Source of the DNA: a virus
Lineage: Duplodnaviria > Heunggongvirae > Uroviricota > Caudoviricetes
IMG/VR virus record: IMGVR_UViG_2558860161_000007
Coordinates: 1 to 31,841 of that record
Strand: one strand, 5' to 3'
DNA length: 31,841 nt
The notes beneath the pieces were generated by a model. That model did not search any database. It was given only the letters and a program-made list of their open reading frames with translations, and had not been told where the DNA came from. This document shows positions 11,263 through 31,841 of the stretch, piece after piece. The position numbers and the translations under genes are program-made. Position 1 is the first letter of the stretch. Each line of letters starts with the position of its first letter.

Positions 11263-12305
11263 TGAGTGAACCCGAAGCCTTAACCAGCACAACGCTAACA
11301 GAAGCTACGGCACCGAAAAACACAGGCGTAAGTGCCGAGGCTTTCAGCTTTGGCGATCCGATCCCGGTACTGGACCGCCGCGAGCTGCTGGACTATGTGG
11401 AATGCGTACAGATGGACAGATGGTATGAACCGCCGGTCAGTTTTGATGGGCTGGCTCGCACCTATCGCGCCGCCGTACATCACAGCTCACCGATTGCCGT
11501 CAAACGCAACATTCTGACCAGTACATTTATCCCACATCCATTACTGAGCCAGCAGGCATTCAGCCGCTTTGTGCAGGACTATTTGGTGTTTGGTAACGCT
11601 TATCTGGAGAAACGAACGAACCGGCTCGGCGGCATTCTGTCGCTGGAGCCATCGCTGGCGAAATACACCCGCCGCGGGATCGACTTAGACACCTACTGGT
11701 TTGTGCAATACGGTCTAACCACGCAGCCCTACGAGTTCACTAAAGGCAGTATCTTTCACCTGATGGAGCCGGACCTGAACCAGGAAATTTACGGCCTGCC
11801 GGAATATCTGTCCGCCATTCCGTCCGCCTTGCTGAACGAGTCCGCTACGCTGTTCCGGCGTAAATACTACATCAATGGCAGTCATGCAGGGTTCATCATG
11901 TATATGACCGACGCCGCGCAGAACCAGGAGGACGTGAACAACATCCGCCAGGCCATGAAAAGCGCCAAAGGGCCAGGGAACTTCCGCAACCTGTTTATGT
12001 ACTCGCCGAACGGTAAAAAGGACGGCATCCAGATCATCCCGTTATCGGAGGTTGCGGCGAAAGACGAGTTTCTGAACATCAAGAACGTCAGCCGCGATGA
12101 CATGATGGCAGCGCACCGCGTACCGCCGCAGATGATGGGTATTATTCCCAACAATACCGGCGGCTTTGGTGATGTGGAAAAGGCCAGCCGTGTCTTTGTT
12201 CGCAACGAGCTGATGCCGCTGCAGAAGCGACTGCAGGAGCTTAACGACTGGCTTGGCGAAGAAGTGATCCGCTTCGAAGCCTACACATTAGATGTTCAGG
12301 AGTAA
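11259..12305 (+). CDS. Q: Portal protein Q (P2 gpQ-like)
   Basis: 348-aa ORF overlapping the P stop (ATGA); size and synteny as in P2. Confidence 0.9.
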   Translation: MMSEPEALTSTTLTEATAPKNTGVSAEAFSFGDPIPVLDRRELLDYVECVQMDRWYEPPVSFDGLARTYRAAVHHSSPIAVKRNILTSTFIPHPLLSQQAFSRFVQDYLVFGNAYLEKRTNRLGGILSLEPSLAKYTRRGIDLDTYWFVQYGLTTQPYEFTKGSIFHLMEPDLNQEIYGLPEYLSAIPSALLNESATLFRRKYYINGSHAGFIMYMTDAAQNQEDVNNIRQAMKSAKGPGNFRNLFMYSPNGKKDGIQIIPLSEVAAKDEFLNIKNVSRDDMMAAHRVPPQMMGIIPNNTGGFGDVEKASRVFVRNELMPLQKRLQELNDWLGEEVIRFEAYTLDVQE

Positions 12306-12315
12306 CAAAAGAAAA

Positions 12316-12336
12316 AGGCGCTCATATTGAGCGCCT
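12316..12336 (-). terminator. Stem-loop with flanking A/T tracts, likely rho-independent terminator for the leftward cargo operon (possibly bidirectional)
   Basis: Inverted repeat aggcgctca-tat-tgagcgcct; on the - strand it is followed by a T-rich run, immediately after the stop of the 112-aa gene. Confidence 0.5.
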
Positions 12337-12355
12337 CTGCATTTCAGACAAAGTA

Positions 12356-12694
12356 TCAGCAGACGGCATATACACCATCAAATCCAACAGAAGGCACCTT
12401 CTTTGATGCTACTTCATTGCTACGACGCTGGATCACCTTTGCAATACTTTTTAAAATTGAAGGGGATGCATTGCGAACCTTTACCTGGCTCAAAACTTTG
12501 GTTACGCCGAATTTCACAACCAAAACACCAAAGATTTCATCAGAGTATGATTCTGAAATTGAATAAACGCCGCTCAAATCCAAATCAACAAAGTTCCCCT
12601 CATTGATGAGAACTTCAATCTTGTGCCGTTGGGGGATAGCCTGATTGCGCGAAGCCAGGTCACCCTCGGGCAACTTGTATGCAATTTTATTCAT
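12356..12694 (-). CDS. Small STAS-like (anti-sigma-factor-antagonist-like) protein; second gene of a two-gene cargo operon
   Basis: 112-aa ORF; segment FVDLDLSGVYSISESYSDEIFGVLVVKFG resembles the STAS/SpoIIAA-type core; AGGAGG Shine-Dalgarno inside the end of the upstream gene, and its start overlaps that gene's stop. Confidence 0.55.
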   Translation of the reverse strand: MNKIAYKLPEGDLASRNQAIPQRHKIEVLINEGNFVDLDLSGVYSISESYSDEIFGVLVVKFGVTKVLSQVKVRNASPSILKSIAKVIQRRSNEVASKKVPSVGFDGVYAVC

Positions 12695-13815
12695 TACTCT
12701 CCTCCTAACGCCCGCATGATTTCCATAAGTTGAGGGTCATTTTCTTCGTTATCGTAATCTTTATCGATCGCCAGTTCATGAATCTTAAAACGGCATGAAA
12801 TTGCCACACCTGACCACTCTTTATGCAATTCAGTGTAGCTCAATTGATCACCAACTGCCTCTAAGCATACATTTCCTGTAGCCAGTTGCAATTCCCCGTT
12901 GTATGTTTTTACCAATTTCATCAAGTGATATAGACCAAGCCCTTGATGATTATTCTCTTTTTCTTTAACTGCTACCGGAACACTTGCACCAAAGACGCTT
13001 CCACCCATATTGTCATACGGCAATTGCTGTGCCCAATCATCTATCAGATCAGCATGTTTAGATGAGTTACCTTCTTGTATACACCATGCTATGGCATCAC
13101 GATGATTGTCAATTCCTTTGATGCCTGCGCGCCTTAACTCTCTAAAAAACCCCATGCCACAGTCTGCAAGAGCAAACTCAAGATAATGCTCTTTTCCACC
13201 GGTTCTTGGTACTGCCCATTTTTGCGCAAAAGAAAAACCGGTATCCCTACCATGCGACCAGACGTTGTCGTGTAACTCACCAACCACACGTGTGAGATCG
13301 TTTATCCCTTGAGGATAAACCTTCCTCTCAGGGAATGTTAATTGCCTAATACAGCTATTTATACTTGAAGTAGCTGAATCGACTGCTTCAACATTCTTCA
13401 GAGCTGTCACAAGGCTGTAGTTGGTTCCGACATTAACTCTTTTTTGGTCATAACGGTCTTCCCCCCAAACAGCTTTGTGCAGACCAATGGCATTCATGTA
13501 ACCTGCGCCAGGTAAGTTGCAAGCATCTTCTGACAGCTTATTGTGATTTATATAAGCAGCCAAGACAGCAATATAGCCAGGGTGACAATGGTCATTCGGT
13601 AAAAGCAATTTCCCCTCACCACGATCATGAAATATAGCAATGCGGTGAATACCATCTTTTAGACCAAATCCCATTGACCAATCTCCACGAAAAATTTCCC
13701 CTATAATATCGCCTGGGAAAACTGAGCGCAAAGTAAAGCACTTAACCAAGCTTGCGCGCGCTCGTATCCCCGCCACGCCTGCCCGCTTTATGTAGTGGTT
13801 TTCATGCACCTGCAT
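12694..13815 (-). CDS. GHKL-superfamily (histidine-kinase-like) ATPase domain protein; first gene of the two-gene cargo operon
   Basis: 373-aa ORF with N-box-like VVGELHDNVWSHG, G1-like LADCGMGF and G2-like HQGLGLYHL in canonical order. The first ~27 codons overlap the cos-like site; an alternative start at Met48 (~13674) has a GGAG Shine-Dalgarno. The region is lower in GC than flanking phage genes. Confidence 0.6.
   Translation of the reverse strand: MQVHENHYIKRAGVAGIRARASLVKCFTLRSVFPGDIIGEIFRGDWSMGFGLKDGIHRIAIFHDRGEGKLLLPNDHCHPGYIAVLAAYINHNKLSEDACNLPGAGYMNAIGLHKAVWGEDRYDQKRVNVGTNYSLVTALKNVEAVDSATSSINSCIRQLTFPERKVYPQGINDLTRVVGELHDNVWSHGRDTGFSFAQKWAVPRTGGKEHYLEFALADCGMGFFRELRRAGIKGIDNHRDAIAWCIQEGNSSKHADLIDDWAQQLPYDNMGGSVFGASVPVAVKEKENNHQGLGLYHLMKLVKTYNGELQLATGNVCLEAVGDQLSYTELHKEWSGVAISCRFKIHELAIDKDYDNEENDPQLMEIMRALGGE
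13761..13800. other. cos-like site (cohesive-end region) of the P2/186-type prophage
   Basis: Reverse complement reads GGCGTGGCGGGGATACGAG, resembling the 19-nt P2/186 cohesive-end core as I recall it; the flank is homologous to two repeats in the satellite (24567..24640, 24878..24960). Confidence 0.5.
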
Positions 13816-13983
13816 GATCTACGCAAAAGCCCACCAGTTCTGGCGGGCCTTAGCAAAAACGATCCTCAAACGATCATGCGATCTCATGCGGCATAGACAT
13901 GCACTACAGAGCTAACGCCTCGCAAGGGCTCGTTGTTCAACCTTGCTGACGCCAGAAACAAGTTCAGACGCCAGCAACGTTTC

Positions 13984-14217
13984 TTAATGCAGCCAGCTGT
14001 CGTCTTCCCACACCTTCTGCATAATTTTCATCACTTGCTTCCTTTCTTCGTCCAGTTGCAGTCCGGTCAGTTCCACACCGTTAGAGCTACCTTTGCGGAT
14101 ACGAATTACCGTTTTGGGATACAGGGGGCGCAGATTACGGTAAAGCTCGGATTCAAGGGCGTCCAGGGTAGACTGGCTAATCTTCTGCTCTTTATCGATC
14201 ATTATTTCAATGCGCAT
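13984..14217 (-). CDS. DinI-family protein (SOS-regulated; DinI/Tum-C-terminal-like)
   Basis: From MRIEIMIDKEQKISQSTLDALESELYRNL...VWEDDSWL, which resembles E. coli DinI; GAGGTG Shine-Dalgarno before this Met; the ORF track extends it to 14289. Confidence 0.7.
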   Translation of the reverse strand: MRIEIMIDKEQKISQSTLDALESELYRNLRPLYPKTVIRIRKGSSNGVELTGLQLDEERKQVMKIMQKVWEDDSWLH

Positions 14218-14227
14218 AAAAGTCACC

Positions 14228-14416
14228 TCAGCTGATGACATCCATTGAGCGGTTGTATTCGTGGCTTCTGATTTTTGCCATGAGTTCATCAGTCAATTCA
14301 GAAACCCACTGCAGAGCCAGTCCCTTCTCTTCATCACTACACTCACTGGCCGCTACAAGCTTAAGAAAAAAATCAATGCGCTGGAGCTTCAAAGACTCCA
14401 AAAAATAGTCCTGCAT
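14228..14416 (-). CDS. Hypothetical 62-aa protein, first gene of a candidate LexA-controlled operon
   Basis: Small ORF immediately downstream of a LexA-box-like sequence and coupled to the DinI-like gene; no recognisable domain. Confidence 0.45.
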   Translation of the reverse strand: MQDYFLESLKLQRIDFFLKLVAASECSDEEKGLALQWVSELTDELMAKIRSHEYNRSMDVIS

Positions 14417-21791: not shown

Positions 21792-22991
21792 GTGGCACGG
21801 ACAACTCGCCCCCTAACCAACACCGAAGTTCTGCGCGCGAAAGCGTTAGAGAAGGATCTAACGCTGCATGATGGTGATGGGCTTTTCCTGATAGTGAAAA
21901 CTAGCGGCAAGAAACTCTGGCGCTTTCGCTATCAACGCCCAGCAACAAAACAACGGACTATGATGGGACTTGGTGCTTTTCCTGCCCTTTCTCTTGCTGA
22001 TGCCCGAGGGTTAAGAGCAGATTACCTTGCCCTATTAGCCAACGGAATCGACCCGCAAATTCAAGCTGAAGTTGCAGAGGAACAGCAGCAAATCGCTCTG
22101 GACAGTATTTTTTCGACGGTCGCCGCTAACTGGTTCCAGCTCAAAAGCAAAAGCGTTACCCCTGATTACGCTAAAGATATATGGCGTTCACTGGAAAAAG
22201 ACGTATTTCCAGCTATCGGTGAGACCCCTGTCCAGCAAATCAAAGCCCGAACACTGGTTGAAGCCCTTGAACCGATCAAAGCACGTGGGGCGCTGGAGAC
22301 AGTTCGTAGACTGGTACAGCGTATCAACGAAATAATGATTTATGCGGTTAACACTGGCTTGATTGATGCCAACCCCGCATCAGGTATTGGTATGGCTTTT
22401 GAGAAACCCAAAAAGCAAAACATGCCGACGTTGCGACCAGAAGAATTGCCTAAGCTGATGCGTTCGCTAGTCATGTCAAATCTATCTGTTCCGACTCGCT
22501 GTCTTATTGAGTGGCAACTCCTGACGCTCGTGCGCCCTTCTGAGGCTTCAGGTGCTCGATGGGCTGAGATCGATCTCAATGCCAAACTCTGGACAATTCC
22601 AGCCGAACGAATGAAAGCTAAACGTGAACATATAGTACCTCTATCTACACAGGCGTTAGAGATTCTAGAAGTGATGAAGCCAATCAGTGCTCATCGCGAA
22701 CATGTTTTTCCGAGCAGGAACGACCCCAAAAAATCAATGAACAGCCAAACGGCAAACGCTGCCTTAAAACGCATAGGCTATGGAGGTAAGCTTGTTGCTC
22801 ATGGTCTACGTTCTATAGCGAGTACAGCTCTTAATGAAAATGGTTTTAATCCAGATGTAATTGAAGCAGCATTAGCACATTCGGATAAGAATGAAGTAAG
22901 ACGTGCATATAATCGTTCTACCTATTTAGAACAACGTCATGAGTTAATGAATTGGTGGGGTTGTAAAGTTTGCCCTACCAATTCATTATAA
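21792..22991 (+). CDS. int: Tyrosine integrase (P4/CP4-57 family) of the satellite element
   Basis: 399-aa ORF (GTG start); N-terminal arm-binding-type region (GDGLFLIV...KLWRFRY) and C-terminal catalytic region (AHGLRS...ALAHSDKNEVRRAYNRSTY). Confidence 0.9.
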   Translation: MARTTRPLTNTEVLRAKALEKDLTLHDGDGLFLIVKTSGKKLWRFRYQRPATKQRTMMGLGAFPALSLADARGLRADYLALLANGIDPQIQAEVAEEQQQIALDSIFSTVAANWFQLKSKSVTPDYAKDIWRSLEKDVFPAIGETPVQQIKARTLVEALEPIKARGALETVRRLVQRINEIMIYAVNTGLIDANPASGIGMAFEKPKKQNMPTLRPEELPKLMRSLVMSNLSVPTRCLIEWQLLTLVRPSEASGARWAEIDLNAKLWTIPAERMKAKREHIVPLSTQALEILEVMKPISAHREHVFPSRNDPKKSMNSQTANAALKRIGYGGKLVAHGLRSIASTALNENGFNPDVIEAALAHSDKNEVRRAYNRSTYLEQRHELMNWWGCKVCPTNSL

Positions 22992-23002
22992 GATAAAACA
23001 GA

Positions 23003-24421
23003 TCATACTTTACCGGGGTATGTTTTAAACATACTCCTTAATACGTCAAATGTCTGTTCACCTATGATTGAAAATTCTTTAATCATTTCCATTAAGTTAT
23101 TTCGGCTAATCAAGAAAATATACAAACCTTGATCTTTCGATATTTCTTTCACTCTATCAAGATACTTTTCCTCGGCAGAATTTTCGCAGAATATTAAACC
23201 TATCTTAGAATTACATTCTTCGACTTTTCTAAGTGTAGTATAAATATGTTCCTCGTTCAATTTATGCTGAGGATCAATGACATTTACAACTATCAACTCT
23301 GAAATAATGTTGTACACTGAAAAATCGAAAAAGAAACCTTTCTTAGCCTCATTAATTAATGAAAAGAGGCAGCACTGTTCATCCTCACTTATTAATTTGG
23401 GGTAAAACAAGCTAGGATAGAAGATTGAAATCAATATTTTCTTGTATGCTTTAGTGTAATTACTAAAGTCGTTGTTTTTAATTGATAAATCAATATCTTT
23501 CATTAGATCTTTTATGGGGAGAATTACAGGATCTTCATCCTTATCAAAATCACTATGCGCTAGAGGATTCGGAGGATTAATCTCCAGCTCTTTTTTATAT
23601 TCTTTCAAGGTGTTAGGGTATTTTACGAGCTGAGACTCGATAAATCCCTTAGTCTGACCATACTCATCAATGATACTTGTTGTGGTAACAATCCGCTCCC
23701 CTTTAAGCACTTTAACTAATGCCGAGCCAGAGCTTATCAATTCCTTTTTCATTTCCGGAATAATATGCCTCCGATATAAATCCCTATGTGAATAGATTAT
23801 CTCTTCACGTGCAAGTATCTTAGGAATAAGGATAATCTCCTCGCCTTCATAAACAGGGAGATGAAAACGATTTTTATGCCATTTACTACTAACCTTATCC
23901 CACGTTTTGACTTCTGAAACCTCTTTAGTCTCAATGCCGTAAAATATACAAATATCCTTTGTATATTCTATAAAAAAACCTTTGAGAATATTACAAACTG
24001 AATCCGATATTCGGTCAGAACCAATACCTGGGATAGTCAGAGCTGTATCTTCTAGATCAGTTAATATTCCTGATTTTGCAGCCTGACTACTCTTTAGAGA
24101 ATCCAAAATATCTTCAGCAGTTTTTTCACCAAGAGCAGTTCCGGATGATTCTTTTGTTGAATATCCTAAATGAAAGGCATTGGTCTCTCTTAGTGATGAC
24201 AATAAATAAGCAGCTTTTTTAAAATTATTATTCTTTATAGACGCCATTATTTCTGTAAAATAGTCTTGTAACGCGTAAACTAAATCCTGCCCCCATTGGG
24301 ATTTTAAAACCTTTATAGATGTTGGATCTAAAAAAAACCTTAAATCAGTATGCAGAGGAATATCCAAAAAATCTAACGCTACTTGTCTGCCTTCAACTCC
24401 AAAAGCCTCTGAAAACCTCAT
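23003..24421 (-). CDS. Hypothetical AT-rich cargo protein (~472 aa) in the satellite int-cos hotspot
   Basis: ORF 23003..24448; likely start is the ATG at ~24421 with a GGAG Shine-Dalgarno. GC is markedly lower than its neighbours, it is convergent with int, and I recognise no domain by eye. Confidence 0.55.
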   Translation of the reverse strand: MRFSEAFGVEGRQVALDFLDIPLHTDLRFFLDPTSIKVLKSQWGQDLVYALQDYFTEIMASIKNNNFKKAAYLLSSLRETNAFHLGYSTKESSGTALGEKTAEDILDSLKSSQAAKSGILTDLEDTALTIPGIGSDRISDSVCNILKGFFIEYTKDICIFYGIETKEVSEVKTWDKVSSKWHKNRFHLPVYEGEEIILIPKILAREEIIYSHRDLYRRHIIPEMKKELISSGSALVKVLKGERIVTTTSIIDEYGQTKGFIESQLVKYPNTLKEYKKELEINPPNPLAHSDFDKDEDPVILPIKDLMKDIDLSIKNNDFSNYTKAYKKILISIFYPSLFYPKLISEDEQCCLFSLINEAKKGFFFDFSVYNIISELIVVNVIDPQHKLNEEHIYTTLRKVEECNSKIGLIFCENSAEEKYLDRVKEISKDQGLYIFLISRNNLMEMIKEFSIIGEQTFDVLRSMFKTYPGKV

Positions 24422-24566
24422 GTAACACTCCTTTACAATAATCAACATAAAAACAAGAGCATTCTTATTTTTATAGCAAAGGTGGTTTAATCACAAGATC
24501 TTATGAATTGAGCAACAATAATTATCCCTATTTTTTGAAGCTGACGAACATTTCACGTTGCGTACA

Positions 24567-24640
24567 GAGCTTTCCCCGCCTCGCCTGCACGCCTCGTGGG
24601 TCTGTTTTAATGCAGTTGCTTTGCGAGGCTCAGGCTGCCA
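24567..24640. repeat. cos-like repeat copy 1 (P2-type variant)
   Basis: Reverse complement reads GGCGAGGCGGGGAAAGCTC; homologous to copy 2 and to the helper cos-like region. Confidence 0.5.
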
Positions 24641-24877
24641 CAGACTCGAATACGTCAAGGGAATAGCAGCTTTAGAAGCGACGTAATGAACGCCAGAATG
24701 ACTAGTTTCCTCCACCGCCGGGCGGCCTTTTCTTGCACTTCTCCTGACCACCTCAGGGCTCTCCACGCCCTCGAACAGCACCGCACCACCCACCGACACT
24801 CCCGAGAACCCGCGCAGTACAGCGACGCACTCAGGCCGCGAAATTAAATATAATTAAATACTTTACCGCTGGCGCGC

Positions 24878-24960
24878 AATGCTCTCCCCGCCACGCCTGC
24901 CCGCTTCCCGGGGCGCTTTTAATGCAGGTGCATGAAGAGGCTCAGGCCGCGCCAGTGCTG
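24878..24960. repeat. cos-like repeat copy 2 (variant closest to the resident helper)
   Basis: Reverse complement reads GGCGTGGCGGGGAGAGCAT; the flank (ctgcccgctt...ttttaatgcaggtgcatga) aligns with the helper region at 13761..13815. Confidence 0.5.
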
Positions 24961-25061
24961 GTGCGACAGAGTGTGGAAAATTCAGGGTTTTGCATGCAAA
25001 GCCATGCAGCGTAGGCATGCATGGCTATTTTTATTAAAAAGACGGGTATTTTCGGGGCGTT

Positions 25062-25637
25062 TTATGCGGATTTTTTGCGGGTCTGCGCGGCCTGTCGGCG
25101 CATGAAAATCTGACTCTGTTCAGGCGTATATTTTGCCCGGTTGTCGTCTCTCGATGCTCTGTCAGGCCGGAAACCGATGGTTGTCAGAATGTCGCGATCA
25201 TCCTCTGCGTAATCAATATTTCCTCCGCGGGTTACATAAACGGACAGCGCTTCGCGAACACTGGCGGCCGCCCGGTCGAGAGCACGTTCTCTGACAATGT
25301 CAGGTTGTTCGCTGAGATGCATTAATTCCGGTGCCAGTGCGGCGGCCAGCGCGTCGCCGCTTACCTGCATAAAGGCGTGGAGCTGACACCGGATACTGAT
25401 ACGCTGCACGGCCTCATGTGACCGGATGTACTGCCCGGCCGACTGATTTACCGCCCATTTTTTCAGGTCAATATCATCCCGCAGCGCCTGTGCGGCCTCC
25501 GGTTCATAACGGGTGCAGGTCAGCTCCAGCTCCTTCAGCGCCATTTCTGCCCGCGCCAGTGCTGACTTGCTGCTCATCCAGTCCGATTTATTCTTCTGAC
25601 AGGTTTCAAAGGCCTGTTCCAGTAGTGCTCGTGCCAT
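25062..25637 (-). CDS. psu: Psu-like polarity suppression / capsid decoration protein
   Basis: 191-aa ORF; conserved AGQYIRSHEAVQ.ISIR and ILTTIGFRPD segments, as I recall for P4 Psu (190 aa). Confidence 0.8.
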   Translation of the reverse strand: MARALLEQAFETCQKNKSDWMSSKSALARAEMALKELELTCTRYEPEAAQALRDDIDLKKWAVNQSAGQYIRSHEAVQRISIRCQLHAFMQVSGDALAAALAPELMHLSEQPDIVRERALDRAAASVREALSVYVTRGGNIDYAEDDRDILTTIGFRPDRASRDDNRAKYTPEQSQIFMRRQAAQTRKKSA

Positions 25638-25653
25638 TGTCTTTTCTCCTGAA

Positions 25654-25896
25654 TCAGTGGCGCAGCGATGACCGGGCGCAGTCCAGAATTCGGGGCGGTG
25701 TTTCTGGTACTGTTTGTGGTGGTTCGGGCTTTTCTTCTGCCGGTGGCCGTATCACCTCGTCGATAGACTCGGTGGTGCGAAAGGTTGCGGAGCAAAAGAC
25801 ATTCACGCACTGGAGGTAGCTCTGTTTGACGTTATCTGACAGGTAACGGCTGGTACGGACATGGGCAGCCTGTTTGCAGTACGGGCAGCGCATCAT
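25654..25896 (-). CDS. delta: Delta/Ogr-family zinc-finger late transcription activator
   Basis: 80-aa ORF starting MMRCPYC with CPYC...C..C..CSATF, the hallmark of Ogr/Delta. Confidence 0.85.
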   Translation of the reverse strand: MMRCPYCKQAAHVRTSRYLSDNVKQSYLQCVNVFCSATFRTTESIDEVIRPPAEEKPEPPQTVPETPPRILDCARSSLRH

Positions 25897-26696
25897 GGCT
25901 TAACCCCCCGCGTTTTTTTCTTCTGTGCCAGCTCTTTAGCCCGCGCCATTCTGAGAACAGGGCTTTTATAGAGTTTCATATCCACGCCGGTGAGTGCCGG
26001 ACGGTGAAGCCCAATTTTTGAAATTACTGGTTCATGCTCCATGTTGAATGTGTAGTACCTGCTTTGCGCCAGTACATTCTCACCCAGCTCCTGAATGAGA
26101 ACGTTGTGAGGGTGTTCTTCTCCCTTAATCTCGAGCTCACGCAGACGTAACGCAAATGCGCGCACCAGTGAGGGAGGGATGTCTTTCATCACGGTCGCCC
26201 ACTCATTCCGGGAGTAGGCAGAGAACACCGTAAAATGCGTGCCGACGTACTTATCTCCTGATGTACAGGCGGACAGCATGGTACTGGCCTTATCATCGTT
26301 GAGTTCATCAATCAGGGCGGTGAATTCCTCCGCCAGCTCCCGACCGGCCACTCGCTGACTGTGTTCGGCTTTCAGTTCCGGGGTCATCATGCCGCGCAGT
26401 TCGCGAAAACGGGTACGCCAGTTCTGTTCGGCTTCGGCACTTTCATTCAGGGCGTTCTGACGCTCTTTCTCACTGCGGGCAATGGCCGCATCAATATCAT
26501 TCAGCTTCAGCATGTTTTCCGTGTGCGCGGATTTGGCCTTGCTGAACACATCAAGAGCGTTATTTATCGTGGCCTCGGCGTTCTGGTTTGCTTTCTCGTT
26601 AAGGGTATCCAGTGCGCTGTCAATGGCCGTGCGGATGTTCTCATCCTGCGTGCTGCCGATGGTTTTCATTACTGCGGTAAACAAATCTGGTTTCAT
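25893..26696 (-). CDS. sid: Sid-like capsid size determination protein (putative)
   Basis: 267-aa helical/charged protein in the sid position of the psu-delta-sid operon; assigned by synteny and character, not strong sequence recall. Confidence 0.5.
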   Translation of the reverse strand: MKPDLFTAVMKTIGSTQDENIRTAIDSALDTLNEKANQNAEATINNALDVFSKAKSAHTENMLKLNDIDAAIARSEKERQNALNESAEAEQNWRTRFRELRGMMTPELKAEHSQRVAGRELAEEFTALIDELNDDKASTMLSACTSGDKYVGTHFTVFSAYSRNEWATVMKDIPPSLVRAFALRLRELEIKGEEHPHNVLIQELGENVLAQSRYYTFNMEHEPVISKIGLHRPALTGVDMKLYKSPVLRMARAKELAQKKKTRGVKP

Positions 26697-26770
26697 CGTC
26701 GGGTTCTCTCTGTGTTTTCAACCTGACGCCATTCTGCCGTCCCTCAGACAACAACTCGATTCATTGCCGT

Positions 26771-26788
26771 TGTAGCAGACATGGCACA
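26771..26788. promoter_or_regulatory. TGT-N12-ACA dyad upstream of the sid operon (candidate Psid activator site)
   Basis: tgtagcagacatggcaca, ~83 bp upstream of the sid-like start. Confidence 0.4.
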
Positions 26789-26864
26789 AACAGGACTTAA
26801 AAACCCGGCTGGCCAGAGAAAGGTCGCAGGAAACCCCCTCTCTCTGTTTGTTTTTTTACATATA

Positions 26865-26970
26865 ACTATTCACTACTGTTCACTCAGAATAAAAATATAA
26901 GTAAAACAATAAATTAAAGAGTGAACAGTTGAGAGGGAAGTGTTCACCAACTGTTCACTACTGTTCACTG
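26865..26970. promoter_or_regulatory. Cluster of CTGTTCAC repeats (five or more copies, both orientations) in the satellite divergent regulatory region
   Basis: ctattcactactgttcactcag ... gagtgaacagttgag ... tgttcaccaactgttcactactgttcactgg, read directly. Confidence 0.35.
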
Positions 26971-27247
26971 GTCTGAACATCCCGAATGTAAATTTTATGC
27001 GGTATGTCCTATTAATTCATGCTGTTAGGGTGATTAAATCAATTTGCATTTCACTTTTGAAATCTCCAGTGCCTTATAACTCCTTCCAGTGCCTTTAAAT
27101 GGTCTTGAGTAAAAAAACAGCACCCGTTGTCCCGTGCTTTGTACAATTTCCCCCTGTTGCATTGAGAAAAAATATTCACAAAATAGAGCGCTACCTGATA
27201 CCGGACGGACACGTCCGGATCTCTGCGGATATTAACGAGGTAGCGTT

Positions 27248-27514
27248 ATGCACACAGTTTCATCAGTACCATCGTCCCCCACAACCGCGCACCTGATGCC
27301 GGTTTCAGCCCCGGCTCAGGAACGTTTTTTACGTCTCCCGGAAGTCATTCATCAGTGCGGTCTGTCCCGCTCCACGCTCTACGATTTAATTGCCCGCAAT
27401 GCTTTCCCGGCGCAGGTTTCCCTCGGGGGTAAAAATGTCGCCTGGCTGCAGTCTGAAATCACAGCGTGGATGGCAGAACGTGTCGCGCACCGCAACCGGA
27501 AATACGACGCATGA
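27248..27514 (+). CDS. AlpA/Vis-family HTH transcriptional regulator
   Basis: 88-aa ORF containing [29 protein letters not shown], the AlpA-type helix-turn-helix; GAGG Shine-Dalgarno upstream. Confidence 0.7.
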
Positions 27515-27549
27515 ATCAGAGCCGATTTCACAAAGCCCCTTTTTCTGGC

Positions 27550-27665
27550 TTGCATCCGTTGTGTGTTTCCTGGTACAGTTTTGTCGCTGTCGCAAAATCG
27601 ACAGCCGGGCGTGGAAACCCGAGCAACTCGAAGGCGACACCAGACGCGCCATGCGTCTTTTTTTG
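27550..27665 (+). ncRNA. Candidate small structured RNA (promoter-hairpin-terminator unit) in the satellite immunity-region position
   Basis: TTGCAT-18 bp-TACAGT promoter-like hexamers, hairpin gctgtcg-caaaat-cgacagc, then stem agacgc-gccat-gcgtct followed by TTTTTTT; the long overlapping ORFs here lack convincing starts. Confidence 0.3.
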
Positions 27666-27912
27666 TGTCGCAACTAACGCCACAGAGCGCCAGATAATGG
27701 CGTGGTGTGCGGATCGTCGTGCAGACGTCACTTTGTGTCTCCTGTCCGCAATCGCATATCATGCTGTCATGTCAATGGTAGCTCAGGCGGGGCAGCCCTC
27801 GGGCTGGCCGGTATTCTTCGAGGCCGGTATTTCCACCCCCGTCTGGGCTATCGCCACTGAGCGTGGAAACTCCGGCGATAGCAATAATTTGCTACTCGAA
27901 GGAGGTTGCCTT

Positions 27913-28110
27913 ATGGCTACGACCCTCACTCCGTCTCACCCGCAGTTTGTCTTTGTGTTTGCCGCCGTCCGTCGCGCAGACCGTAAGCCCCGTATCTGTA
28001 TGCTCCGCACCGTTGCCGGTGACGAGCTGGCCGCCCGCCGCACCCTTGTCCGCGAATACGTGCTTTCCCTTGCCGCCCGTCTGCCGGTTCTGGAGGTGTC
28101 ACATGCATAA
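27913..28110 (+). CDS. Hypothetical small protein (65 aa)
   Basis: ATG preceded by a GGAGG Shine-Dalgarno (gaaggaggttgccttATG); terminates with an overlap on the next start. Confidence 0.45.
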
Positions 28111-28402
28111 TAAAAATACCCCTCAGACCGTCTCAGCGCGTCGTGATGACCTTAACCCCATGAAGGAACACCTCAGCATAGAGGCGTACCATAAACTCAA
28201 TCGCGCCAGCGCCGTCTCACAGTTCGTGGGAGGAGATTTGCTGCGCCGTGAACTGAACGGTTTACACCAGCTATACCTGCCGCAGATTTTTAGTTATATC
28301 CATGAGGACGTCAGCTACGTCCTGGAAGAGCTGAAAGCCAAAGGCCTGTGCCGTGACTTTCTCGCCACGACGTCGGGAAACGGAGGTGAGCACCATGTTT
28401 GA
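28103..28402 (+). CDS. Hypothetical protein (99 aa)
   Basis: ATG (MHNKNTPQ...) preceded by GGAGGTG; lies within the longer 27863..28402 track ORF. Confidence 0.5.
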
Positions 28403-28844
28403 TTTCCCTCAGCCGGGTGAAACATATCGCTGTACAGGATTTCCTGATGTGGTGGTGTCGGGCGTGCTGGCCGACGGTATTCCGTGGGATATGCCGTACC
28501 GCTGTCCGGGGCTGGTCTGGAACCCGTACCGGCGCACCTACACCATCCTCATTCGTATTATTGCCGGTGGCAGCATGGCAGAAATTCCGCTCGGTCGTTT
28601 TTTGCGGGACTTTACCTGTGAGCATCCCGACGTATTTAAACGTAACCCTGAAAACCGCCACGCCGTATTACGCGAAATAGCGGCCGACCCGGCATTACAG
28701 CAATACCGGGCGCGGAATATCGATAACTATCCTGACGATATTCCCCCGGTTAAACGTCCGGCGCCGGTGGCGCATAAATGGCGGAATAATTTCAGACCGG
28801 AAACGGAAATAAAACCGGATAACAGCTACCGCCATTATCTGTAA
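28395..28844 (+). CDS. Hypothetical protein (149 aa)
   Basis: ATG ([11 protein letters not shown]...) preceded by GGAGGTGAGC; overlaps the previous stop. Confidence 0.5.
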   Translation: MFDFPQPGETYRCTGFPDVVVSGVLADGIPWDMPYRCPGLVWNPYRRTYTILIRIIAGGSMAEIPLGRFLRDFTCEHPDVFKRNPENRHAVLREIAADPALQQYRARNIDNYPDDIPPVKRPAPVAHKWRNNFRPETEIKPDNSYRHYL

Positions 28845-28915
28845 TTAAAAACGACACCCAAAAATAAAATGTGCGTATCTGCGCAGGGATACGCACGTCC
28901 TCAGGAGACGAAATA

Positions 28916-29176
28916 ATGCCTGTTAACAGTACGGAACGGCCGCAGAATACAAACCAGCCCATCATCAGCCGGGCAGACCTTGAATGTCTCGAACATATGC
29001 GCAACGTCGGCCAGCTCGTCGGCGACCTGATGCAGGTGCAGGACTGCACCTCTTTGCGCCACAACCCGGCGCAGCAACTACAGCTCACCTCGGTGATTTA
29101 CCTCATGACTGCCCGGCTCGACGGCGTGGTCGACCGCTGTAATCAGCGCTGGCTGACCGGGGAGGGCAACGTATGA
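28916..29176 (+). CDS. Hypothetical protein (86 aa)
   Basis: ATG (MPVNSTERP...) preceded by AGGAGA; a perfect hairpin gtgcgtatc-N8-gatacgcac lies just upstream. Confidence 0.45.
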
Positions 29177-29493
29177 AAAAGCCATTAACGCCCGTCTTAC
29201 GCGCCGCGCTCTATCGCCGTGCGGTCGCCTGTGCCTGGCTGACCCTGTGCGAAAGTCAGCACCGCTACCCGCAGCTCACGCTCAGTACGCTGGAAAGCGC
29301 CATTGCGACCGAGCTGGAGGGCTTCTACCTGCGCCAGCACGGCGAGGAAAAAGGCCGCCAGATTGCCTGTGCCCTGCTCGAAGATTTAATGGAAGCCGGA
29401 CCACTCAAGGCCGCCCCGTCGCTGTCCTTTCTCGGGCTGGCCGTGATGGATGAACTCTGCGCCCGCCATATCACCGCACCGGTACTGCACTGA
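29173..29493 (+). CDS. Hypothetical protein (106 aa)
   Basis: Start overlaps the previous stop (ATGA); immediately upstream of the primase gene. Confidence 0.5.
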
Positions 29494-29507
29494 GGGAGAA
29501 AATAACG

Positions 29508-31841
29508 ATGAAAATGAACGTAACGGACACCGTAAAACAGGCGTGCGGCCACTGGCCGCGCATTCTCCCTGCGCTGGGTGTAACGGTCATCAAAAACCGC
29601 CATCAGGCCTGTCCGGTGTGTGGCGGCTCCGACCGCTTTCGCTTTGATGATAAAGAGGGACGCGGGACGTGGTTCTGCAATCAGTGCGGCGCGGGTGACG
29701 GGCTTAAGCTGGTAGAAAAAGTGTTCGGCGTGACCCCGTCAGAGGCCGCCGGGAAGGTGAACGCCGTGACCGGCAACCTGCCGCCGGTTTCCCCGGCGGT
29801 GACTGCGGCCGCAGACGCTGAAACAGAGGCAGACCGCAAAGCGGCGGCCGCGCTGGCCGTAAAACTGACGGAGAAAGCCCGACCGGTCACCGGCAACGCC
29901 TACCTCACCCGCAAGGGCTTCCCCGGCCGGGAATGCCTGACGCTCACCGCCCTGCACAAAACCGGCGGTGTGACGTACCGCGCCGGGGATGTGGTTGTCC
30001 CGCTTTATGATGATAGCGGCGCACTGGTTAACGTCCAGCTCATTAACGCGGACGGTCTCAAGCGCACCCTGAAAGGCGGTCAGGTAAAAGGGGCATGTCA
30101 TATTCTCGACGGAAAAAAAGAGGCGGGAAAGCGGCTGTGGATAGCGGAGGGCTACGCGACCGCGCTCACCGTGCATCACCTGACCGGCGAAACCGTCATG
30201 GTGGCGCTGTCGTCGGTGAACCTCCTTTCTCTGGCGAGCCTTGCCCGTCACACATACCCGGCCTGCCGGATTGTGCTGGCCGCCGACCGTGACCTCAGCG
30301 GCGACGGCCAGACCAAAGCGTCTGCGGCCGCAGAAGCCTGTGAGGGCGTGGTCGCCCTGCCGCCGGTGTTCGGTGACTGGAATGATGCGTATACACAGCA
30401 CGGCGGGGAGGCCACGCGTAAAGCCATGTATGACGCCATCCGGCCACCGGCTGACAGCCCTTTCTCTACCATGAGCGAGGCGGAGTTTACCGCCATGAGC
30501 ACCAGTGAGAAAGCCATGCGGGTGCATGAGCATTACGGCGAAGCGCTGGCGGTGGATGCGAACGGCCAGCTCCTGTCCCGTTATGAGGCGGGCATATGGA
30601 AAATCATTCCGCCGTCGGACTTTGCGCGCGACGTGGCCGGGCTGTTTCAGCGTCTGCGCGCCCCGTTCTCATCGGGAAAAATTGCCTCGGTGGTGGACAC
30701 CCTGAAACTGATTATTCCCCAGCAGGACGCCCCGCCACGGCGGCTGATTGGTTTTCGCAACGGGGTGCTCGATACCAAAAGCGGTATATTCAGCCCGCAC
30801 AGCAAAACGCACTGGCTGCGCACCCTGTGTGACGTGGATTTCACCCCGCCGGTGGAGGGGGAAACGCTGGAGACGCACGCGCCGAATTTCTGGCGCTGGC
30901 TCGACCGCGCCGCCGGTTCGCGTGCCGATAAACGTGACGTGATACTCGCCGCGCTGTTTATGGTGCTGGCGAACCGTTACGACTGGCAGCTCTTCCTCGA
31001 AGTGACCGGTCCCGGCGGCAGCGGGAAAAGTATTCTGGCCGAAATTGCGACCATGCTCGCCGGGGAAGATAACGCCACGTCGGCGACTATCGAGACGCTG
31101 GAATCCCCCCGCGAACGCGCGGCGCTGATTGGCTTCTCGCTGATACGTCTGCCTGACCAGGAGAAATGGAGCGGTGACGGGGCAGGACTCAAGGCCATCA
31201 CCGGCGGCGATGCGGTCTCCGTCGACCCGAAATACCGCGATGCATACTCCACCCATATTCCGGCGGTGATACTGGCCGTGAACAATAACCCGATGCGCTT
31301 CACCGACCGCAGCGGCGGGGTGTCCCGTCGCCGGGTGATAATGCACTTCCCGGAACAGATTGCCCCGGAAGAGCGTGACCCGAAGCTGAAAGATAAAATC
31401 GCCCGGGAGCTGGCCGTCATCGTGCGCCAGCTCATGCAGACGTTCAGCGACCCGATGACCGCGCGCACACTGCTCCAGTCGCAGCAGAACTCCGACGAGG
31501 CACTCAGCATCAAGCGCGACGCTGACCCGACATTCGATTTTTGTGGCTATCTGGAGGCACTGCCCGAGCCTGACGGTATGTATATGGGGAATGCGAATAT
31601 CATCCCGCGACAGCCGCGCCTGTACCTGTATCACGCCTATCTGGTCTACATGGAGGCGCACGGCTACAAGAACACACTCAGCCTGACCATGTTCGGCAAA
31701 GGACTGTCATCGATGCTGAAAGAGTACGGGCTGAATTACGGTAAGCGACGAACAAATCAGGGGATACAGACGAACCTTGCGCTCAGGGAGGAAAGCAACG
31801 CCGACTGGCTGCCCCGGTGCGATGAAACCACCGCGACATAA
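29508..31841 (+). CDS. alpha: Alpha-type primase/helicase (zinc-binding primase domain + TOPRIM-like + SF3-type P-loop NTPase)
   Basis: 777-aa ORF, the P4 alpha length as I recall it; N-terminal CPVCGG...CNQCG zinc motif; central acidic region LAADRDLSGDGQ; Walker A GPGGSGKS; stop at the window end. Confidence 0.9.
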   Translation: MKMNVTDTVKQACGHWPRILPALGVTVIKNRHQACPVCGGSDRFRFDDKEGRGTWFCNQCGAGDGLKLVEKVFGVTPSEAAGKVNAVTGNLPPVSPAVTAAADAETEADRKAAAALAVKLTEKARPVTGNAYLTRKGFPGRECLTLTALHKTGGVTYRAGDVVVPLYDDSGALVNVQLINADGLKRTLKGGQVKGACHILDGKKEAGKRLWIAEGYATALTVHHLTGETVMVALSSVNLLSLASLARHTYPACRIVLAADRDLSGDGQTKASAAAEACEGVVALPPVFGDWNDAYTQHGGEATRKAMYDAIRPPADSPFSTMSEAEFTAMSTSEKAMRVHEHYGEALAVDANGQLLSRYEAGIWKIIPPSDFARDVAGLFQRLRAPFSSGKIASVVDTLKLIIPQQDAPPRRLIGFRNGVLDTKSGIFSPHSKTHWLRTLCDVDFTPPVEGETLETHAPNFWRWLDRAAGSRADKRDVILAALFMVLANRYDWQLFLEVTGPGGSGKSILAEIATMLAGEDNATSATIETLESPRERAALIGFSLIRLPDQEKWSGDGAGLKAITGGDAVSVDPKYRDAYSTHIPAVILAVNNNPMRFTDRSGGVSRRRVIMHFPEQIAPEERDPKLKDKIARELAVIVRQLMQTFSDPMTARTLLQSQQNSDEALSIKRDADPTFDFCGYLEALPEPDGMYMGNANIIPRQPRLYLYHAYLVYMEAHGYKNTLSLTMFGKGLSSMLKEYGLNYGKRRTNQGIQTNLALREESNADWLPRCDETTAT

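Follow-up and report, generated by a model that had tools for sequence, protein, structure and literature searches.

What function is carried by two genes of low guanine-plus-cytosine (GC) content that lie between the portal gene Q and the cos site of a P2-like prophage? We addressed this question in IMG/VR virus record IMGVR_UViG_2558860161_000007, positions 1 to 31,841 (the window, meaning this whole stretch of 31,841 nucleotides), in which a co-directional minus-strand pair of open reading frames (ORFs) was first called at 12694-13815 (373 amino acids) and 12356-12694 (112 amino acids). An earlier note, made from the sequence alone, had presented the pair as a GHKL ATPase and a STAS-like protein forming a candidate undescribed anti-phage module. 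The best explanation, which we hold with moderate confidence, is a phospho-switch, a kinase and its STAS substrate made as one expression unit, with an anti-phage role. Its parts differ in strength: sequence comparisons give good support for a GHKL serine kinase and a STAS substrate that share one expression unit, evolving and spreading as a pair, and a role in anti-phage or inter-element conflict is plausible from context.

A predicted serine kinase and its STAS-like partner

The N-box, G1 and G2 motifs reported earlier for the larger protein, in canonical order, are conserved: in an alignment of 62 homologues, ELHDNVWSHG (N-box), EFxLADxGxGF (G1) and NHHQGLGL (G2) are invariant or nearly so. 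In the window protein these boxes of the GHKL superfamily read E133-L-H-D-N137, D171-C-G173-M-G175 and Q-G245-L-G247-L. Residues N137, D171, G173, G175, K206, G245 and G247 are invariant among the homologues, and E133 is present in at least 90% of them. Structure prediction, which the earlier note had proposed together with profile searches and a PADLOC scan, agreed with the GHKL assignment. AlphaFold2, given the homologue alignment, modelled the kinase with a predicted local distance difference test (pLDDT) score of 86.3 and a predicted template modelling (pTM) score of 0.83, with low confidence in an ATP-lid insertion of ~35 residues (205-245). Among the matches listed by Foldseek against the PDB, all were weak and every one was a GHKL protein. 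The closest structural matches are the anti-sigma factors SpoIIAB, RsbW and UsfX, along with SiaB, a kinase from a biofilm partner switch. Based on the motifs, the model and the Foldseek matches, the C-terminal ~200 residues are predicted to form a GHKL (Bergerat-fold) domain of the anti-sigma serine-kinase type; a DHp or phospho-histidine module is absent. Single-sequence and profile searches of PDB sequences returned nothing meaningful for the kinase, and in PHROGs the large protein hit only a family whose function is unknown. These comparisons support well the assignment of the gene 1 product to serine protein kinases of the SpoIIAB/RsbW/VapK type, with its predicted ATP site intact.

The smaller protein, earlier described as STAS-like, belongs to a named family. 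Pfam PF14213 (DUF4325, 'STAS-like') matches residues 23-80 with E=1.8e-9 and 37.6 bits, above the gathering cutoff of 23, and is found in 61 of 61 STAS homologues. STAS is the sole domain detected in the 112 residues, and there is no DNA-binding domain. Among 44 STAS homologues, R16, S45, S47, D52, E53, F55 and G56 are invariant and S49 is nearly so, and the invariant residues fall in the motif V-x-S-I-S-E-S-Y-S-D-E-I-F-G-V-L, which lies at the predicted strand-3 to helix-2 junction. This junction is the phosphorylation site in STAS antagonists. Gene 2 likely encodes the cognate DUF4325 STAS-like substrate of the kinase.

Two further observations concern this protein. Its tail of ~18 residues (12356-12412) is variable among enterobacterial STAS proteins, usually ending in cysteine (..AVC, ..ATC), and 95-residue Pseudomonas versions have no C-terminal tail. 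The PADLOC scan left the kinase unmatched and gave the STAS protein only a partial match, in which positions 314-396 of the 1750 in the DrmA (DISARM) profile align with residues 14-95 (12410-12655; E=9e-7). From its sequence, this match implies that some DrmA proteins contain a DUF4325-like segment.

The two genes stay together across many loci. A DUF4325 gene lies 3' of the kinase gene, overlapping it or within a few bases, in each of the 27 fetched loci whose sequence continues past the kinase gene. The loci have no third gene in common: an all-against-all BLAST of the neighbours returned only P2 backbone genes and integrases, and no partner recurred among 124 neighbouring proteins summarised with Pfam and PADLOC. 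The two domains also occur fused, as HATPase_c joined to DUF4325 in family 69 of the P4 hotspot (Table S1B of Rousset et al. 2022, PMC9122126), and PHROG 5816 has a C-terminal STAS-like region within its 441-position profile. Ratios of nonsynonymous to synonymous substitution rates (dN/dS) of 0.11 for the kinase gene and 0.07 for the STAS gene place both under purifying selection. At E<=1e-30 the kinase family comprises 162 of 1.84 billion cluster representatives; the full-length members listed have ~300-330 amino acids.

The cassette is found on diverse mobile elements in Enterobacterales, Pseudomonas, Acinetobacter, Ralstonia and Burkholderia. It occupies the Q-cos-A position of P2-like prophages in E. 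coli and in a soil metagenome-assembled genome (MAG), lies between Q antiterminator/Bro genes and holin/lysis genes in a Salmonella lambdoid prophage, and lies between tail-fibre genes in a Xenorhabdus prophage. On Pseudomonas islands it sits beside an integrase or with AlpA and primase genes, in Acinetobacter on a small islet, and in the isolated phages phiRSA1 and Burkholderia vB_SBP7 after int/attP, near the genome end.

Comparison of the window with the E. coli ESBL15 cassette (locus L002, 6003-7315) gave amino acid identities of 94% for the STAS protein and 75% for the kinase, with synonymous divergence (dS) of 0.43 and 1.77, respectively; within the kinase, divergence is greatest in residues 1-60, where identity is 55%. 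Since the STAS gene is far better conserved than the kinase gene in this pair, the sequences suggest either that the cassette has recombined internally or that the presumed sensor end evolves rapidly. At two metagenome-assembled loci (L014, 9977-10963, and L022, 2266-3246) the kinase gene is frameshifted and the STAS gene is intact, which could be an assembly error or genuine inactivation.

Extent of the cassette and its place beside cos

Several sequence features described earlier were borne out. The genes are translationally coupled: the kinase stop and the STAS start share one base in TAATG at 12696-12692, and a GGAGG Shine-Dalgarno sequence sits 6 nucleotides 5' of the STAS start. Their GC content of 0.42-0.44 is lower than the 0.53-0.60 of the flanking P (terminase) and Q (portal) genes. 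The hairpin terminator, recovered in a terminator scan directly 3' of the STAS gene, has an 11-pair stem with 6 GC pairs and a T-run after it. Gene Q is convergent with the cassette and ends at 12305.

The reported extent had to be changed. By aligning window positions 13700-13900 with the genome ends of phage P2, we located cos, which agrees with the placement of the pair between Q and cos: window 13779-13761 reads GGCGTGGCGGGGATACGAG and the P2 cohesive end GGCGAGGCGGGGAAAGCAC, with 14 of 19 bases matching and flanks aligning on both sides. In a megablast search, the cos region was the part that P2-like phages have in common. Codons 1-47 of the 373-residue ORF (13815-13675) overlie this site, and we rejected that reading of the large ORF because it crosses cos. 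The true kinase start is ATG 13674, giving a product of 326 amino acids, as judged from a preceding GGAG ribosome-binding site, homologue lengths of 320-330 amino acids, the RefSeq annotation of a 326-residue kinase at a near-identical locus in E. coli JP538, and the conserved start codon and upstream -10 element. This element (TATTAT or TATGAT) is a putative one that lies ~30 nucleotides 5' of ATG 13674 in three divergent cassettes (the window, E. coli ESBL15 and soil MAG locus L008; protein identity 63-75%), in which the start codon and the -10-to-ATG distance are also conserved; the putative promoter scores 8/12, under the threshold of the consensus scan. With the start corrected, the feature extends over about 12314-13731 rather than 12356-13815. 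The unit is therefore a tentative promoter, the kinase gene (13674-12694), the STAS gene (12694-12356) and a terminator, inserted between cos and Q. It is an autonomous two-gene moron with translational coupling, its own terminator and, tentatively, its own promoter.

Features of the cassette and its cos boundary in the window
Feature	Position	Strand	Remarks
Putative sigma-70 promoter (tentative)	13703..13731	-	-35 TTGCGC 13731-13726, 17-nucleotide spacer, -10 TATTAT 13708-13703; read from sequence
Kinase gene, 326 amino acids + stop	12694..13674	-	Divergent N-terminal alpha/beta domain, then predicted GHKL domain of anti-sigma serine-kinase type
Kinase N-terminal domain, residues 1-118, presumed sensor or partner-binding	13321..13674	-	Most variable part of the protein
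Predicted GHKL (Bergerat-fold) kinase domain, residues ~119-300	12775..13320	-	
Kinase N-box E133/N137	13278-13252	-	
Kinase G1 box D171-G175	13164-13150	-	
Kinase G2 box G245-L248	12942-12931	-	
STAS-like gene, 112 amino acids + stop, Pfam DUF4325	12356..12694	-	
Candidate phospho-acceptor serines of the STAS protein	S45 12562-12560, S47 12556-12554, S49 12550-12548	-	
Intrinsic terminator closing the cassette	12314..12338	-	AGAGGCGCTCA-ATA-TGAGCGCCTTT, then TTCTTTTGTT
cos cohesive-end sequence of the P2-like prophage	13761..13779	.	Boundary/context, outside the cassette; aligned with P2 cosL and cosR

In the discarded extension (13675-13815), the first 22 residues match phrog_28685 (E=3.6e-9), a family whose function is unknown. 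As the matching 47-codon extension overlies the conserved cos region, phrog_28685 probably collects spurious ORF calls across cos.

The P, Q, cos, DinI-like and A genes or sites were identified around the cassette. Between cos and replication gene A (13984-14416) lie a DinI-like gene (Pfam DinI, E=1.2e-22), whose real length is probably ~77 amino acids as annotated in E. coli JP538, and a 62-residue phrog_698 gene. Both are prophage backbone in the P2-like loci examined and not cassette cargo. The ESBL15 locus has an extra gene for a 141-residue hypothetical protein on the opposite strand, between cassette/cos and the DinI-like gene (L002, 7790-8215), which is absent from the window. A P4-like satellite directly adjoins the P2-like prophage at 21792-31841, with a second integrase (21792-22991), Psu (25062-25637) and an alpha primase-helicase (29508-31841). 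Its int-psu interval, the P4 defence hotspot, holds a 481-residue minus-strand ORF (23003-24448; GC 30-36%) with no Pfam match and a match to PADLOC candidate PDC-M36A (E=2.8e-32).

Proposed function and rival explanations

The location in a P2 defence hotspot, which the earlier note had put forward, is supported by the cos alignment and by Rousset et al. 2022 (PMC9122126), who defined gpQ-cos-gpA as a defence hotspot and validated several of its systems experimentally. The word 'undescribed' in that note has to be narrowed. The same study lists the identical two protein sequences in its Table S5B as system #112, 'DUF4325', with 28 occurrences, and its Table S5 includes WP_016242316, the STAS-like protein of the near-identical E. 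coli JP538 locus; neither protein sequence appears in its tables of tested systems (PMC9122126). Relatives of the pair, CapK/CapS and VapKSC, were described in 2026, and VapS is in the same Pfam family as the window STAS protein. Literature searches joining STAS domain, phage defense and kinase, or partner-switching and anti-phage, found nothing by those terms; papers mentioning DUF4325 were irrelevant to the cassette, and a 2026 preprint on P2/P4 hotspots mentions neither STAS nor DUF4325.

These relatives supply most of the analogy. VapKSC consists of a kinase, a STAS antitoxin and the VapC PIN toxin, and gives ~2 logs of protection against phage Bas42 that needs the kinase and the STAS serine (Chambers et al., EMBO J 2026, PMC13373217). 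There VapS is both a validated kinase substrate and an antitoxin that inhibits VapC via its tail; the PIN protein, not the kinase, is the toxin. In CapK/CapS, a GHKL kinase activated by single-stranded DNA (ssDNA) phosphorylates a STAS repressor with a winged helix-turn-helix (wHTH) domain; the pair sits upstream of CBASS, Bub and Thoeris operons, and DNA damage activates the kinase. Activation of VapK by ssDNA from DNA damage is probable (PMC13373217).

By homology to VapK/VapS, CapK/CapS and SpoIIAB/SpoIIAA, the cassette kinase would phosphorylate the invariant S45 or S47, where STAS helix 2 begins, and phosphorylation would flip the STAS protein between binding partners. From its context, a lysogen would express the switch, which would act on superinfecting phages. 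Probably the kinase N-terminal domain senses some signal of infection; the analogy with CapK and VapK suggests ssDNA or DNA damage as possible cues. For the output there are two candidates. The kinase might act as the effector in the manner of anti-sigma kinases, by phosphorylating some factor of the host or phage or by sequestering it; alternatively, a factor encoded elsewhere might be held by the STAS protein.

Several observations weigh against this phospho-switch with an anti-phage role. Profile searches, which placed the STAS protein in a Pfam family, gave no Pfam or NCBIfam match for the kinase at E<=1, and no model in PADLOC v2.0.0 matches it. VapS S48 aligns to E48 of the window protein, flanked by S47 and S49, leaving the predicted acceptor serine ambiguous. 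No effector gene lies within the cassette, unlike VapKSC with its PIN toxin and CapKS with its downstream operon, and the defence output is speculative for that reason. A PIN gene is present at 0 of 27 cassette loci, whereas both VapK loci checked have one as the third gene; where CapK/CapS precede an operon, the cassette has its own terminator and a convergent portal gene. The kinase N-terminal domain has no detectable similarity to the STAS/ssDNA-binding domain of VapK, so the VapK trigger cannot be transferred by homology. The cassette is rare, with 25 carriers among 5426 complete E. coli genomes. In other Gammaproteobacteria it lies at chromosomal loci with mixed neighbours, many of them housekeeping genes and some of them defence genes (GajA, a type III methyltransferase, PDC-S20, KAP and STAND nucleoside triphosphatases, and RelE).

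A more specific possibility, which we regard as doubtful, is an effector-less partner-switching immune system. Here the anti-sigma-like kinase would hold or phosphorylate a transcription or replication factor of the host or the invading phage, the STAS protein would set the switch and the fast-evolving kinase N-terminal domain would sense infection. If true, it would be without precedent as an anti-phage system that works by SpoIIAB/RsbW partner-switching logic and has no dedicated toxin.

Other functions would fit parts of the same evidence. The tight, translationally coupled operon, its presence on many mobile elements and the two MAG loci with a frameshifted kinase beside an intact STAS gene would suit an addiction module, in which a kinase toxin phosphorylates an essential host protein, the STAS protein acts as decoy or antitoxin, and the prophage or island is stabilised. 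The relative VapKSC indeed acts as a toxin-antitoxin system with a STAS antitoxin, yet its toxin is a PIN protein rather than the kinase, and the PIN gene is absent from cassette loci. Validated defence hotspots favour inter-element conflict, although toxin-antitoxin and abortive-infection roles are compatible, and we consider pure addiction unlikely. It is quite unlikely that the pair is a regulator of lysogenic conversion, an anti-sigma factor and its antagonist that bind a host sigma or transcription factor and reprogram stress responses, biofilm formation or virulence for the lysogen. The structural neighbours SpoIIAB, RsbW, UsfX and SiaB point that way, the missing effector gene is what a host-factor target would predict, and P2 hotspots also hold non-defence cargo such as cytolethal distending toxin and partition systems (PMC9122126). 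Yet the kinase matches no Pfam HATPase_c_2, HATPase_c-type or other anti-sigma family, its sequence-level relatives VapK and CapK serve immunity, and a host range from Enterobacterales to Pseudomonas, Acinetobacter, Ralstonia and Burkholderia would need a single conserved host target.

The position beside cos, near the DinI-like gene, together with the activation of CapK, and probably VapK, by ssDNA from DNA damage, could also indicate a damage sensor serving the element's own life cycle, in induction, replication or packaging near cos, much as CapK/CapS sense ssDNA. This is improbable: the cassette occurs in ~0.5% of complete E. coli genomes though P2-like prophages are common, and it moves among unrelated phage types and non-phage islands. 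The window STAS protein also has no DNA-binding domain, unlike CapS, and the cassette ends in its own terminator with no downstream gene that it regulates. Least credible of all is a decayed, non-working remnant of a three-gene VapKSC that lost VapC. The gene order, kinase then DUF4325, and the distant kinase-domain homology are those expected of a remnant, but selection on both genes and the consistent two-gene architecture (27 of 27 loci) speak against decay. Catalytic residues are invariant or nearly so, and the 162 representatives form a distinct family of uniform length (~320 amino acids) with 19-24% identity to VapK.

The phospho-switch with an anti-phage role would add to a recent group of immune modules built on GHKL-kinase and STAS pairs, so far comprising the CapKS regulator and the VapKSC toxin-antitoxin. 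In the cassette, the same kinase-substrate core travels alone, with a tentative promoter and a terminator of its own, through defence hotspots of P2-like, lambdoid and other mobile elements. Should the cassette protect against phages, this core pair alone would be enough for immunity, raising the question of whether the kinase is the effector or an outside factor is captured. The cassette is short (1.4 kb), easily cloned and precisely bounded, in a hotspot with a high reported success rate for untested cargo.

Comparison with known systems

The cassette resembles P2 old and tin and other cos-proximal cargo in lying in the gpQ-cos-gpA variable region, in its low GC content and in its autonomous expression. 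It differs in that its proteins are unrelated to Old or Tin and in its side of cos: old and tin lie on the A side, whereas the cassette lies on the Q side, at the left end of the virion genome, where P2 itself has a cos-Q interval of ~140 bp.

The SpoIIAB/SpoIIAA and RsbW/RsbV partner switches have no sequence-level match to the cassette, whose kinase is longer by an N-terminal domain of 118 residues. The cassette includes no gene for a PP2C phosphatase, and none for a sigma factor lies in or beside it. Its gene order is reversed, with the kinase first, and it resides on phages and islands rather than in a housekeeping stress operon.

CapK/CapS share with the cassette a GHKL serine kinase gene followed by a STAS substrate gene, and a conserved serine. 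CapK, however, has an extra helix-turn-helix (HTH) domain and CapS a wHTH DNA-binding domain, whereas the window STAS protein is a bare 112-residue STAS domain.

VapKSC is the closest relative. For this comparison, VapS and VapK sequences were taken from the AlphaFold 3 file of PMC13373217. Both systems run from a kinase gene to a DUF4325 STAS gene and occur in mobile-element or defence contexts. VapS (116 residues, against 112 in the window) also matches DUF4325 (E=2.7e-17) and aligns in register with the window protein (residues 25-76 to 25-76). Against VapK and a 35-member VapK family profile, hhalign indicated homology of the GHKL domains with 90% probability (E=1.4e-6, 132-182 columns). 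The hidden Markov model (HMM) of the kinase and that of VapK each match the other's family, and the kinases share W-x-x-Q-x-G-N-S/T-S/T and GLGL signatures. They differ in their low overall identity and in a ~30-residue ATP-lid insertion in the window kinase; the STAS tail, which VapS requires, is variable in the window family and missing from its short Pseudomonas members. Given distant GHKL homology, N-terminal domains without similarity and loci that never include a PIN gene, sequence comparison places the kinase-STAS pair as a sister family of VapK/VapS, outside VapKSC and CapKS.

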